Assembly (NCBI GenBank): GCA_951406725.2
Contig: OX597833.1
Span: forward strand, 49,228,001 to 49,292,000
Length of the DNA: 64,000 nt
Origin: Octopus vulgaris
Taxonomy: Eukaryota
Direction: 5' to 3'
A program made the translations under genes and the position numbers. Positions 44,478 to 56,948 of this stretch are shown piece after piece. The stretch's first letter is position 1. Each line of letters begins with the position of its first letter. The notes under the pieces were generated by a model that did no database searches, was not told where the DNA came from, and saw nothing but the letters and a program-made list of their open reading frames with translations.

Positions 44478-44994
44478 ATATCGTGAAGTATATTTGTCAC
44501 CTAAACGTGGCTAACCCTTAAGGGTCGATGCTACTGTATCTTGTAGCCCCAAGAAATTATCCCCTCCAGCTGGCTATTGACACACTATTTGTGCCCTCTC
44601 AGTATTTGCAAAGGAAAAACCATCGTTCCCATCTCCAGCCTGAATTGATACACACGGATCCGAGTTTCTGAGTATTGACCCATCATCAGCGTGTGACAAC
44701 CACCGGTTGGCGTTAGGAAGTGGTTCTCAATGCAAATATATATATACTTTTTTTCCAGTGACGAAAAGTGATCTCGAAAAAGTGGAAAGAAGCAATAATA
44801 AATCTCTGAGCGAGTATTTGCAAAGGGCTGGAGATGGGAGTTGGGAACGATGACCTCCCTTTGCTAATACTGATCGGGCACAGATAGTGTGTCAATAGCC
44901 AGCTGGAGGAGATGTCTCCCTCGGGCTACAAGCTACAGTAGCAACTAATCTTAAGGGTTAGCCACATTTAGGTGGCAAATATACTTCACGATAT
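44478..44994. mobile_element. Fold-back element with ~160-bp inverted arms enclosing a hammerhead motif
   Basis: ATATCGTGAAGTATATTTG.CACCTAAA.GTGGCTAACCCTTAAG at both ends in inverted orientation. Confidence 0.85.
44651..44695 (-). ncRNA. Type I hammerhead ribozyme motif
   Basis: CACACG-CTGATGA-TGGGT caat ACTCA-GAAA-CTCGG-ATC-CGTGTG; stem I 6 bp, stem II 5 bp, weak stem III. Confidence 0.7.
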
Positions 44995-46069
44995 ATAAGT
45001 TTACTGTTCCGTTAAGGTAGGATTAGCATAAAATGACACCATCCAGTGAGAGATAAATATCATTTAATGTAGACTGCATTTAAAATAAGAGTTACAAATA
45101 GTTACTTGCCATTGAGACACGTGGTTAGGCAGATTTTTATACCTTGCCTTGTGTCTCTAAGCAATATTCATGCTCTTGGCATATAGTTTGTTTTATTTGA
45201 AAATCAGAAAGCTAGCATATGAGAATCCATGAGAAGAAAAAAATCGAGAAGTTGATGCAAAAAGCGGAATGCAAAAAGACGAAAAATGAAAAAAAAACCG
45301 GAAAATACTTCTACTTTCATCACATAAAAAACTAATTACGATAGTTACTATTTAAAAAAAAAATCCTACATAACTGGTATATTGGATATATACAAGGTAG
45401 CATCGCTAAATTATTAGAATTGTTTTTACTCTTAGATAAATTTCACACTTTTTCACATAAATAGATAAAGTAATCAGAGAAGTTGCGATAAACACAAATT
45501 TATATTATTAGCGCTCTTGTTGTTTGGAACACTGCATTTGTTCTAAGTGCTACTGGTTGCTAAACCACAACGGATAATAAAGGGAACACTTTATTACATT
45601 ATATTACAGGGAAATAATGTAACTAAATAAAGGAATATAAAGAACATTTATTATTATACCAGTCCCTTATTCTTTTCTCTTTACTCTTTTACTTGCTTCA
45701 GTCATTTGACTGTGGTCATGCTGGAGCACCACCTTTAGTCGTGCAAATTGACACCGGGACTTATTCTTTGGAAGCCTAGTACATATTCGATCGGTCTCTT
45801 TTGCCGAACAGCATCGGTTGTCAAGCGATGTTGGGGGGACAAACACAGCCACACACATATATATATATACATATATACGACGGGCTTCTTTCAATTTCCG
45901 TCTACCAAATCCACTCACAAGGCTTTGGTCGACTCGAGGCTATAGTAGAAGACACTTGCCCAAGGTGCCACGCAGTGGGACTGAACCCGGAACCATGTGG
46001 TTCGTAAGCAAGCTACTTACCACACAGCCACTCCTACACCCTTGTGAACTTTTCGTGAAATGATATTTG

Positions 46070-49000
46070 GTTAATGGTGTAAAATCTAGTTTTACCTACA
46101 ATAGCACAATTTATGTTCAACATTTCAAGTCTAATCAAACGGTCTTGTTCCAAAGGCGAACGGTTTTATTTTTAATCTGCTTCTAAGCGTTGAGACTCCA
46201 TTCTCCGGAAGCAACAGATGTTGGTAGACTTTAAAAATATATTCTCAATGCAATCATAACATATGAAAATATTCCAGTGAATAGCAAAGTTAGAATCACC
46301 GGTGGAAATTTGTTTAGCATTTGATCTAGCTTACACTTTATTAAATGCATTCATTTAAAAAATAGAATCTCTTTTCAAAGTTCTTCATCAGTTAGATTAT
46401 TAAATTGTCAAAGAAATACAAAGCGGGCACTTATCAAATGCATTGACTCAAATCTTAGTTCAAGCTCACGTACTTTAAACAGAATCTATATCTATAAAAG
46501 GCAAGATGTGTGTGTGTGTACGTGAATGTACTTTATGCACATCCACAAATTAGCATGCATGTCGCTCCAATTTTAGGAGGACATTGGTTACAACCATGGC
46601 TGTGCTTTTGTCAACTTATTTTTCCCGAGGCACCCCCGAATAGCGGTAAAATTAGCTTTTCAACCATAACTTTTACCAATTTTCCCCGTTGGTGAAATCC
46701 GCAAGTTTGCTAACATGAGTTAAGTCCCCTGTCTTATAGATTAATTCATCCTACTACAATGCCTCCGAAAAAGATTGGATTTGGACTACCTAAGCAATCT
46801 CAGCATAGGAAAAGAGAGAGAGCTGAAGAGCCGGACTATCAGCAGAACCATTTGTAAAATATTAAAACTTTTTGGGCCGAAACCTGGCAATAAGAGCTTG
46901 CAGATATTCCGCTACAAAACATTCAATAATATCAAAGCAGTACCTTTCATAAATCAGGGTATAATTTTTGAAGACTCTTTCTGAACCCAGTCAACGACGG
47001 GTATTTCTGCTAGTACTGCTTTATAAGAAGACAAAAAGACATTCGCTTTGTAATGGCGCCCGTCTGTAGACTGAGCTGGTCATGTACAACCAGTGAAGAA
47101 TTCGGATGAAATTCCAATGTTCTCTGCTAATTGTTTGGATGCTTTTAGGTTTGAAGTTAATTATTCTTAGTTTCATCGAATGTAATTCATGAGACTGCCA
47201 ATGTTTATTTCTTTATTACCCACAAGGGGCTAAACATAGAAGGGACAAACAAGGACAGACAAAGGGATTAAGTCGATTACATCGACTCCAGTGCGTAACT
47301 GGTACTTAATTTATCGACCCCGAAAGGATGAAAGGCAAAGTCGACCTTGGCGGAATTTGAACTCAGAACGTAGCGCCAGACAAAATACCTATTTCTTTAC
47401 TACCCACAAGGGGCTAAACAGAGAGAGGACAACCAAGGACAGACAAAGGGATTAAGTCGATTACATCGACCCCAGTGCATAACTGGTACTTAATTTATCG
47501 ACCCCGAAAGGATGAAAGGCAAAGTCCACCTCGGCGGAATTTGAACTCAGAACGTAGCGCCAGACAAAATACTGCTAAGCATTTCGCCCGGCGTGCTAAC
47601 GTTTCTGCCAGCTCGCTGCCAAGACTGCCAATGTTATCCTTCTCAGTATTAATTCTACAGTTGCATGCTTCAGTTATCAGATTCATTTAGTAGATCATTG
47701 TCAGTACCTTTAATGATGAAGATGATAACAGAATGCACTGAAATGTAGACATGTATTTAAAAATGCTTATCTATTTCAGTTTGAGCTTGTACAGTTAGAT
47801 TTAGGTATTCAAGCTCAGTTGATGCTTTTCTGATGACATGTACATGTTGTGCAATAGGTTTAACATTATTTGAACAAACAGATCACCTGGTCCTGAACTT
47901 GTTACGCAAATAAACATAACTTCAGAATTTCCCACATTACTGGACTGTTGCTCAACATTTTGTTCATTTGTCGAATTGTTCCCAAGTATACAGCTGCTTC
48001 CTTGCATGGCTCAGTGCAGTTAAAACTAAGATTTTATTTTATATCTGGAGTAAATTCATTTTTAATTAAGCTCTATTGAACTTAATTATAACTTCCACAC
48101 ATTTGATTCATTATCATAGGTTATCCGTTGCATATGGGAAAATCAAGCTTAAAGGTTTTCTGAAATAGTATTTGAGTGACAATTTAATTTTCATTTTCTA
48201 TTGGGAACTTACAAAATAAAATGAACTTTTTAAAATTGAAAGTATTGAACTACCAACTGTTCTTGCTTTCCAAATGGTCGCAGGAAGATGATAAGTTGTA
48301 TAGTTGCATATCATAAATGAGAATTCATTATGGTCATAAAAGAAACTAAATTGAATAGATATCAGCAATTAAACAGCATCAACTGGGAGATTAATTGATA
48401 ATTCATTAAATGAGCTAAGGATAGTGGCTAATACCTGAAAACAGTCAAATGAGAAATGTTTAAATGTTACTTTGTCTGGTCGTTTGTTTTTCTTTGTATG
48501 AATAATCTGGCGTGACATCGACAATTGTTGATCAATATCTAGCATTTCAAATCTCATCAAGGATTTTCATTAGTGCAAATTTTCCGCAAACCTCAAAGAA
48601 TTCGTTTAGAGTGTACGCAGAGAGAGAGAGAGAGAGAGAGAGAGAGAGAGAGAGAGAGAGAGAGAGAGAGAGAGAGAGAGAGAGAGAGAGAGAGAGAACA
48701 GCCTTGAATTCTCTTAAGATGTTTTTGTGATTCTCGCTCCAATTTGAGATGTTCAGCAAAAAGTGGGTCATATTTGCTGAGAAGTCCAATGATGTCGAGA
48801 AAGTTTCCATCCTTTCAGTCATAAGATCGTTGACTGGACTAAGAAAAGCTAATCCACGCTCAGACCAAGTAACATTTAAACATTTCTCATTTGACTGTTT
48901 TCAGGTATTAGCTCCTATATTTAGCTCAGTTAATAAATTATCAATTAATCTCCCAGTTGATGCTGCTTAATTGCTGATACCTATTCAATTTAGTTTCTTT

Positions 49001-49640
49001 TATGCCCATAATGAATTCTCATTTATGATATGCAACCATGCAACTTATCATCTTCCCTTCAACCATAATAAATATTCTGGTCAGAATGTCCTGAGATTAT
49101 TGTATAAGTTTCATTGAAAAGAAAGCAAGGGACACAGCACAAAGACTGCTTTTCGACGATCTAATATATCCGGTGTCTTGAACAGGTTTTACCATTTAGA
49201 AAAAGGTCATAGACAATATGCAAAAGAATATTTATCAGAATGTCGAAGAGTGCATTTTTTTTTCTTCGGATTTCAAAACCATTTCGTGAAGACAGTGCAT
49301 TTGATCTGCATTGATTTTATCAATAATTCCAATATCAAGCAAAGTCAAAACAGAAGCATTCGTGGGTCGCTGCTCTGCTCTTCCTGTTCACATGATATTT
49401 TAACTGGAATTTCTGCATCAGTTGATATCTGTGGCCCGGCCTACATCGTATGTTTCTCTTGCTGTTGGTATTTCAGAACTAGTTACAATATCACTTTTTG
49501 CTGATGGAGTCAGAAACTGAATTATTGTTGGTAAGCTGTTAACAGTTGAATTATTCAATAGCTTCCACCATCTCTTGTTTGGCTTACTTTCCAGCTTTCT
49601 CTTCAGACGTAAACAATATTATTTGGAAAGCAAAGCATAA
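46070..49640 (-). pseudogene. Decayed hAT (Tip100/ZMYM1-like) transposase with nested insertions
   Basis: GNFLDIIGLLSKYDPLFAEHL; KILDEI*NARY*STIVDVTPD; IALRI..SLPTSVASGEWS (hAT dimerisation motif). Confidence 0.7.
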
Positions 49641-49701
49641 ATTTTCATCTTTTTTTTATTTTTGTAATATTGATAGTATGTAATATAAAAAATACAAGAT
49701 T

Positions 49702-56293: not shown

Positions 56294-56381
56294 ATGCAGT
56301 ACGACTGTTTCAAGCGGCTCCATTTAATTGAGCAATGCAATCATTACATCAATTTAAATACAGGGCTATCATCAGCTGCAT
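56294..56381 (-). ncRNA. Type I hammerhead motif with long stem II insertion
   Basis: ATGCAG-CTGATGA-tAGC...(ATTTAAATTGA/TCAATTAAAT)...GCTt-GAAA-C agtc GTA-CTGCAT. Confidence 0.65.
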
Positions 56382-56601
56382 AAATAAATAAATAGAAATT
56401 TTTAATCAATCGGACACATTTGTATAATTTTACTTAAATGAGTAAGAAGACATATATATATATATATATATATATAATAAATATTAGGGAATAAATCCAA
56501 ATTTACAGGGAAAAAATCAGATTTAGGATTAAATCCAATTTTATAGTAAAATATTATATAATATTAATTCATAAATTAAAACAGATTAGGAGATCGTAAA
56601 T

Positions 56602-56644
56602 CCACCTGACGAATGTCATTGAAGACATGAAACGATTGTAGTGG
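56602..56644 (+). ncRNA. Type I hammerhead ribozyme, complete core
   Basis: CCAC-CTGACGA-ATGTC attgaa GACAT-GAAA-C gatt GTA-GTGG; predicted cleavage after 56640 (GUA). Confidence 0.8.
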
Positions 56645-56948
56645 CGGTTTATTTCTTTATATTAAAAATTTTTATGTATTGATTAAGTCTTTCCTTGTTT
56701 GTTTTGCAAAATAGTGGTTTGTCTCGAATTAATATTATATATATATATATATATATACCAAATCTACTCACAAGGCCTTGGTCGGCCCGAGGCAAGAGTA
56801 GAAGACACTTTCTCATGGTGATACGCGGTCGAACTGAACCCGGAAACAGATTTCTTACCACACAACCACGCATGCACCTATACTGCATATATTGTATGTT
56901 TATTAAGTGATACGCTCATCATTACTTCTGTGAGTGTGGTGAAGTGTA

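Follow-up and report, generated by a model that had tools for sequence, protein, structure and literature searches.

The stretch of DNA considered here is a window of 64,000 nucleotides (nt) from Octopus vulgaris (assembly GCA_951406725.2, contig OX597833.1, positions 49,228,001 to 49,292,000 of the forward strand), and all coordinates below are those of the window. Two insertions within it, element A near 44.5 kb and element B near 53 kb, are short, non-coding, and associated with dinucleotide microsatellites, and each carries a type I hammerhead ribozyme motif; they are examined as candidate retrozymes, that is, as non-autonomous retroelements which a Penelope-like element (PLE) might mobilize. 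The features of the two loci are as follows, with a pseudo-LTR denoting the pseudo-long terminal repeat of PLE insertions.

53356..53711, plus strand: element B, full non-coding unit of 356 nt, ending at a UUAU junction with (TA)n
53287..53355, plus strand: 5'-truncated upstream copy of B comprising the last 69 nt of the unit (pseudo-LTR), identical to 53643-53711
53074..53286, minus strand: 5'-truncated copy of B in inverted orientation, with 170 nt that match the unit except at one position, plus a 43-nt tail
52936-53076, unstranded: (TA)n target, left of B
53707..53899, unstranded: (TA)n target, right of B
53497..53542, plus strand: type I hammerhead of B, in which helix I is 6 bp long, the core is U3-A8, helix II has U-U at its base, helix III is palindromic, and the triplet is GUC, with cleavage predicted after 53536
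44478..44815, minus strand: element A, 338 nt, an older relative of B, collinear with the B unit and ending in a (CA)n/(TA) tract
44651..44695, minus strand: type I hammerhead of A, with a C3-G8 core, a 5-bp helix II, and a damaged helix III; predicted cut after 44657
44827..44994, plus strand: inverted 5'-truncated copy of A, 85% identical

The anatomy of the B locus is that of a partial head-to-tail tandem with a period of 356 nt, in which the last 69 nt of the unit are followed by the whole unit. When followed from 53286 down to 53074, the inverted copy corresponds to unit positions 53542-53711 and then to the unit's initial 43 nt (53356-53398), so that the template must have continued past the end of the unit into the start of a next one. 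Both outer ends of the insertion terminate in TTAT abutting a TA tract. PLE insertions have been described as showing a partial tandem that forms a pseudo-LTR, an adjacent inverted 5'-truncated copy, a tail of 30-40 bp, and (TA)n targets (PMC8557442), and all four marks are found in B, the tail being 43 nt. The unit has a GC content of 46% and its longest ATG frame codes for 62 amino acids, even across the joint between units, and neither A nor B contains a frame for a reverse transcriptase with a GIY-YIG endonuclease. The predicted fold of the B RNA is strong (z of -6.2, with none of 100 shuffles as good) and places the hammerhead at the tip of a G-U-rich rod of about 40 pairs.

Element A can be aligned with B from end to end with a score of 202, as compared to 93 +/- 10 and a maximum of 128 for 200 shuffles. 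The two agree in 174 of 325 columns (54%), and the hammerhead is their best-kept part, with 32 of 45 columns identical against 142 of 280 outside it. Since the collinearity extends over the whole unit, A and B represent a family rather than a one-off deletion. The first-pass annotation of this DNA had proposed several non-autonomous families; what stands is that A and B are non-coding, of retrozyme size, multicopy, arranged head to tail, and inserted in the Penelope style, and what does not is their separation, as the two are subfamilies of a single family. Its observation that the motifs at 44651-44695 (minus strand) and 53497-53542 (plus strand) both lie within long fold-backs and have a helix I of CACACG/CGTGTG in common is borne out. 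The A unit has a GC content of 42% and a longest frame of 47 amino acids; judged by its damaged helix III and its non-significant fold, A is the older of the two. In both elements the ribozyme strand is predicted to fold more stably than the complementary one, with -63.5 against -48.2 in B and -45.5 against -37.5 in A, and makes use of 7-8 G-U pairs. The same comparison made for other hammerhead-like motifs of the window, described below, favors the ribozyme strand at 56606, is even at 40960, and goes the opposite way at 31928. A profile of A and B run over the window found no member of the family beyond the two loci, with the next best match at an E of 0.94.

Copies of B are present elsewhere. 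Parts of the B region occur in 20 of the 24 listed sequencing runs (12 studies, five organism labels, and one metagenome), three of which contain at least half of its sequence words. Four of the 24 (X1, X5, which may be RNA, X6, and X22) were compared with the monomer of B, the one element surveyed in this way. The contigs bearing the family come from three organisms; X22, a raw poly(A) run of another organism, yielded 0 matching reads, a result without bearing on expression. In X1 alone 797 contigs fit the B unit, which is thus multicopy, with the understanding that the summed contig depth used in this comparison is not a copy number. The end-to-start joint of the unit occurs in X1, in X5 (as a loose end), and in X6, where one contig carries both the joint and an inversion whose breakpoints are unlike those of the window and which is therefore an independent insertion of the same pattern. 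The longest coverage of B by any contig is less than the whole unit, and most contigs fit a single unit. Pattern scans of metagenome contigs and viral contigs gave no match. Loose ends at 53436-53454 and 53611 suggest other subfamilies, which would share the unit ends and differ in the central rod, and at one X5 loose end the hairpin following the rod appears intermediate between A and B.

The hammerhead of B had been listed as degenerate in the first-pass annotation, a description that does not hold for its core. This core reads UUGAUAA as compared to CUGAUGA in A, such that the paired positions 3 and 8 have both changed, from C-G to U-A. At position 53503 the copies in the contigs compared show no alternative letter, and at position 53508 A is replaced by G in 562 of a summed depth of 6946 in X1 and also in one X5 contig, giving U-G. 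A 303-nt X5 contig with seven substitutions retains U3-A8 and keeps four of the five modelled pairs that its substitutions touch, two of them by double changes, while the fifth reflects a change peculiar to the main copy in the window. Covariation to U3-A8 has been reported for the hammerheads of Cercyon PLEs of Schistosoma (PMC4209133), and a hammerhead with a U3-A8 core has been reported to be active in vitro (PMC3088659). U3-A8 is thus a known, compensatory hammerhead variant, common across the B family, and the B hammerhead is plausibly intact. The occurrence of C3-G8, U3-G8, and U3-A8 forms within one family offers a natural test of core covariation, and searches for CUGANGA alone would overlook the B subfamily. 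Evolution of the B copies driven by RNA editing was also considered and is unsupported, as the X5 differences show no excess of A>G (A>G 8, G>A 7, C>T 6, T>C 4).

The window contains further hammerhead-like motifs. All six listed in the first-pass annotation were confirmed in the sequence where it had placed them, and two more were added that it had missed. Those outside A and B are the following.

56294..56381, minus strand: type I hammerhead of a family unrelated to A/B, with a 6-bp helix I, a 57-nt helix II, and a GUA triplet
56602..56644, plus strand: type I hammerhead of a family unrelated to A/B, with a 4-bp helix I, a 5-bp helix II, and a near-palindromic helix III
55983..56019, plus strand: doubtful minimal-hammerhead-like motif, with CUGAAGA and GAAACGUA present and helix I absent beside the core
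32498..32556, minus strand: possible decayed hammerhead with U at position 8, of a class not above chance
40954..40998, plus strand: type I hammerhead missed earlier, with an intact core and a perfect palindromic helix III (Hammerhead_1, 19.1 bits)
31924..32027, plus strand: hammerhead-like motif with a long helix II, missed earlier, with a broken helix I, in a fold-back at about 31689-32080 beside (TG)n

The core boxes CUGANGA and GAAA, the NUH triplet, and the 3-8 pair are all found at 44689 (the core of A), 40960, 56375, 56606, and 31928 with C3-G8, and at 53503 (the core of B) with U3-A8; at 32552 the 3-8 pair is replaced by C3-U8. Three helices with an open-ended helix I are present at 53503, 40960, 56375, and 56606, while helix III is damaged at 44689, and helix I is broken at 31928 and absent at 55990. 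Of the three motifs that had been called degenerate, the one at 55990, which lacks helix I, and the one at 32552, whose U at position 8 puts it in a class not above chance, are still regarded as doubtful.

With a constrained-folding descriptor applied to the 64-kb window, five type I folds with an exact core and an energy of 0 kcal/mol or less were obtained, at 56375 (minus), 56606 (plus), 44689 (minus), 40960 (plus), and 28952 (minus), whereas 100 dinucleotide shuffles made in 500-nt blocks averaged 0.46, with 3 as the highest count and none reaching five. The frequency of exact-core motifs therefore exceeds that of shuffled sequence. A second descriptor, which admits C3-G8 or U3-A8 cores and a 2-bp helix III, found three motifs against 0.09 when helix I was at least 6 bp (0 of 200 shuffles as high) and four against 0.81 when it was at least 4 bp (2 of 200). 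It has to be noted that both descriptors were tuned after the motifs had been seen, so that these figures are optimistic. Neither cores with one mismatch (3 vs 2.38) nor those with two (20 vs 17.2) are enriched over shuffles of the window, and the same applies to palindromic 3' halves (11 vs 7.2, with 23 of 200 shuffles as high). The exact-core fold at 28952 has no credible helix II and was set aside as probably due to chance, as were the matches at 8228 (plus) and 15436 (minus), which lie in a repeat whose GAAA belongs to its own hairpin.

The proximity of the motifs to dinucleotide microsatellites was likewise confirmed, with eight of eight candidate cores lying within 250 nt of such a tract as compared to 40% of random points, although the 250-nt threshold was set post hoc and three of the eight cores form one cluster. 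Two TA tracts about 260 nt apart enclose the hammerhead at 56606, and over 55888-56757 three unrelated hammerhead-like elements stand side by side, each bounded by short TA/CT tracts, as if piling into one target. In three local Rfam scans, which excluded 44689, Hammerhead_1 was matched only at 40954-40998, with 19.1 bits (gathering score 34) and an E of 0.022; this is the best canonical hammerhead of the window, in which it has no second copy. The inverted copy at the 31.7-kb fold-back keeps the palindromic helix III together with the matching strand of helix I. This fold-back (31689-32080) has a helix II insert of 77 nt, its main and inverted copies share 80% identity along 127 nt, and its inverted pattern resembles that of A and B, to which its sequence is unrelated. 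The hammerheads at 40960, 56375, 56606, and 31928 probably represent further PLE-related families, which may be either retrozymes or the 5'-truncated ends of full, autonomous PLEs.

The first-pass annotation had also placed a Penelope reverse transcriptase (RT) relic within the window and had linked the hammerhead elements to it, and neither proposal is supported. The relic is composite:

36640..38625, unstranded: decayed flanks, a multicopy insert at 37082-37504, and, at 37915-38391 on the minus strand, the antisense C-terminus of the RT of a long interspersed nuclear element (LINE)

The only intact frame, that at 37915-38391, has 126 homologues at an E of at most 1e-10 among 153 candidates, and among the 120 matches listed two carry PF00078 and one is named an endonuclease-reverse transcriptase. 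The frame is accordingly assigned, by its homologues, to the C-terminus of a LINE protein in antisense orientation, which we take to be of the RTE type. As to the flanks, a resemblance to PLE RT was not confirmed by Pfam, homology, or atlas comparison: Pfam lends no support in six frames or in pieces, two pieces have no homologues, and the atlas matches are uninformative, although the pieces are short and decayed and such negatives are weak evidence. Database support for a Penelope RT is thus lacking, and the hammerhead elements have no evident tie to a relic whose flanks are without matches and whose intact frame is LINE-derived. The satellite part of the proposed system finds no counterpart either, as there is no satellite array within the window.

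Several other repeats surround these elements. A tRNA-Asn(GTT) gene at 38845-38920 (minus strand) is placed between repeats resembling short interspersed nuclear elements in a cassette at 38603-39203, of which a decayed second copy with inverted arms is found at 57770-58376 (74% identical over 610 nt), possibly marking a mobile tRNA-bearing unit. Positions 162-1109, 20964-21423, and 37082-37504 hold related repeats and fold-backs with short telomere-like (AACCCT)n tracts. At 10905-11460 there is a 556-nt near-perfect palindromic element resembling a miniature inverted-repeat transposable element (MITE), whose Rfam match to MIR839 (75.5 bits, gathering score 200) reflects its hairpin only. A decayed frame at 33000-33400 (minus strand) resembles a mariner transposase and may derive from one.

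Taken together, these observations make it probable that A and B constitute one family of non-autonomous retroelements of the non-LTR retrozyme kind, mobilized by a PLE and probably reduced from the pseudo-LTR of such an element. A non-LTR retrozyme is understood here as a non-coding unit of about 150-450 nt with a GC content below 50% and a type I hammerhead, and A/B falls within this class by size, GC content, lack of coding capacity, and hammerhead, as well as by being multicopy and head to tail. In the model proposed, the unit would be a structured non-coding RNA of about 350 nt whose long hairpin bears the type I hammerhead at its tip. Transcripts would come from source copies of at least two units, as in published systems, and two hammerheads would pair via their palindromic helix III, cutting the RNA to unit length; the 8-nt palindromes of helix III are indeed calculated to self-pair with -11.4 kcal/mol in B and -10.3 kcal/mol at 40960. 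By analogy with published retrozymes, the unit-length RNA may then be circularized. A PLE RT/GIY-YIG protein encoded elsewhere would nick a TA or CA tract, following which priming on a UUAU-like motif, placed either where the unit ends or 43 nt beyond that point, would allow target-primed reverse transcription in trans, with more than one unit being copied and an inverted second cDNA being added; this last step has its counterpart in the anatomy observed, and the enzyme is a presumed one. As the insertions of the window carry one hammerhead each, these copies are probably dead-end offspring.

Several results weigh against this retrozyme model. At neither locus is a full unit, or a hammerhead, repeated in tandem, the feature by which Li et al. 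(bioRxiv 10.64898/2026.07.22.740005) recognize an active retrozyme, and an autonomous partner of A/B was not identified. Helix III of the A hammerhead is damaged by a C-A mismatch at 15.2-16.2, and the fold of A is weak (z of -1.6, with 7 of 100 shuffles as good). Rfam, run over the whole window at an E of up to 5, gave no hammerhead among 148 matches, and no hammerhead of the window reaches the Hammerhead_1 gathering score, even the best falling short of it at 19.1 bits. The substitutions used in the covariation analysis were assigned to contigs by depth values, and the inference draws on few sequences; in a more divergent X5 contig, eight of 13 touched pairs are kept and five are broken, two of these having partners in a gapped stretch and one a partner outside the contig. 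Lastly, only one of nine predicted Xenopus dimers was reported to cleave (bioRxiv 10.64898/2026.07.22.740005).

In an alternative explanation, the PLE mobilizes the family as RNA with the hammerhead as an inert passenger, the template being uncleaved read-through transcripts of tandem copies. Such a course is conceivable and on balance doubtful. Naiad PLEs spread without canonical hammerheads (PMC8557442), the hammerheads of PLEs cleave poorly in vitro, and the minimum-energy folds of A and B leave the core unopened, with 6 kcal/mol separating that of B from the active one. The inverted copy starts 5 nt 3' of the predicted cut in B and about 16 nt 3' of it in A, as might be expected if the template had been cut; this is suggestive only, in that the inversions of the 31.7-kb element and of the X6 contig do not begin near it, leaving two of four that do. 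What speaks against an inert hammerhead is that a double change took the core from C3-G8 to U3-A8 with the pair preserved, that the U3-G8 form exists, and that the hammerhead is more strongly conserved than the remainder of the unit.

It is somewhat less probable still that all of these elements are nothing other than 5'-truncated 3' ends, i.e. pseudo-LTRs, of autonomous PLEs, with no non-autonomous family at all. Most PLE hammerheads are single motifs from truncated copies (PMC4209133), the PLE share of the O. vulgaris genome is 6.83% (PMC13282606, supplement), and the unit length at 40960, 56375, 56606, and 31928 is undefined. In B, however, the sequence that follows the pseudo-LTR and the tail regains the same 3' end within 356 nt and has no frame above 62 amino acids, A has the same 5' part as B, and no Pfam match was found upstream of 40960 or 32552. 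A DNA-transposon origin, in which the fold-backs would be MITEs with terminal inverted repeats around a captured hammerhead-like sequence, is very improbable: the inverted arms are long, the targets are TA-rich, and other MITE-like fold-backs occur in the window, yet the fixed terminal inverted repeats and constant target duplication of a MITE are not found, as the arms of B are unequal, with a one-sided tail and a partial direct tandem which largely refute this origin for B, the inversion breakpoints differ in X6, and most contigs of the runs compared fit a single unit. Chance matches in repeat-rich DNA are the least credible explanation, since the sub-threshold Rfam scores, the probable chance origin of one of the five exact-core folds, and the lack of enrichment of degenerate classes and palindromic 3' halves are set against the exact-core enrichment and the fact that A and B are conserved and covary at the 3-8 pair, so that a chance origin is still plausible for 55990 and 32552 only.

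A bolder extension of the retrozyme model, which we think unlikely, pictures a genome in which numerous retrozyme families are still mobile, the 64-kb window containing up to eight hammerhead-like motifs, and in which one family would have switched its core from C3-G8 to U3-A8 via U3-G8 while active, with the rod RNA abundant as a circle and the cut end marking the start of the inverted second strand made by the Penelope enzyme. If true, the inverted copies would be a direct record of a PLE mobilizing ribozyme-cut or circular RNA, and the rods would constitute a large endogenous pool of double-stranded RNA in an animal with heavy RNA editing.

Systems of this kind have already been described (PMC7229834; bioRxiv 10.64898/2026.07.22.740005), and a specialist would expect them wherever PLEs abound, which makes the surprise moderate. 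In O. vulgaris, 31 recently active PLE families have been reported along with the above share of PLE DNA, and the available text and supplement of that repeat paper (PMC13282606) do not mention ribozymes, hammerheads, or retrozymes. The literature search, which left most subscription journals outside its reach, found no report of a cephalopod retrozyme, although the repeats may already be catalogued in Repbase or Dfam. The animal non-LTR retrozymes of Cervera and de la Pena (2020, PMC7229834), such as those of mussel (350-390 bp) and the axolotl Rtz_353 with HHR_Amex2, have in common with B a non-coding unit of about 350 nt, a GC content below 50%, a type I hammerhead, a head-to-tail joint, and a self-paired fold, and HHR_Amex2 further shares U-U at the base of helix II and a helix III of 2 bp with a tetraloop. 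In contrast to the arrays of those elements, the A/B family consists of insertions of 1.2 units that are dispersed, carry 5' inversions, and lie in dinucleotide tracts, and the core of B is U3-A8.

With PLEs (PMC8557442, PMC4209133) B shares the partial tandem, the inverted 5'-truncated copy, the tail, the (TA)n target, the palindromic helix III, and the U3-A8 covariation, and it differs from them in that A/B has no RT/GIY-YIG frame, in a tail of 43 nt instead of 30-40, and in possessing a helix III loop, as the U3-A8 motifs of Schistosoma were retrieved with a minimal-hammerhead descriptor (PMC4209133). Li, Clavereau, and Pollet (2026, bioRxiv 10.64898/2026.07.22.740005) regard retrozymes as non-autonomous PLE derivatives that arose from pseudo-LTRs, on the basis of co-occurrence and pseudo-LTR homology in 35 genomes (31 vertebrates, three insects, and one anthozoan, with no mollusc). 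The proposed pseudo-LTR origin and the presence of dispersed monomers apply to their elements and to A/B alike; the evidence for A/B differs in being that of insertion anatomy, no parent PLE having been found. The enzyme that moves animal retrozymes has so far been deduced from co-occurrence and pseudo-LTR homology, and a young non-coding unit of 356 nt bearing the full PLE insertion pattern adds to this an independent line of evidence, as well as a compact substrate for tests of PLE retrotransposition.

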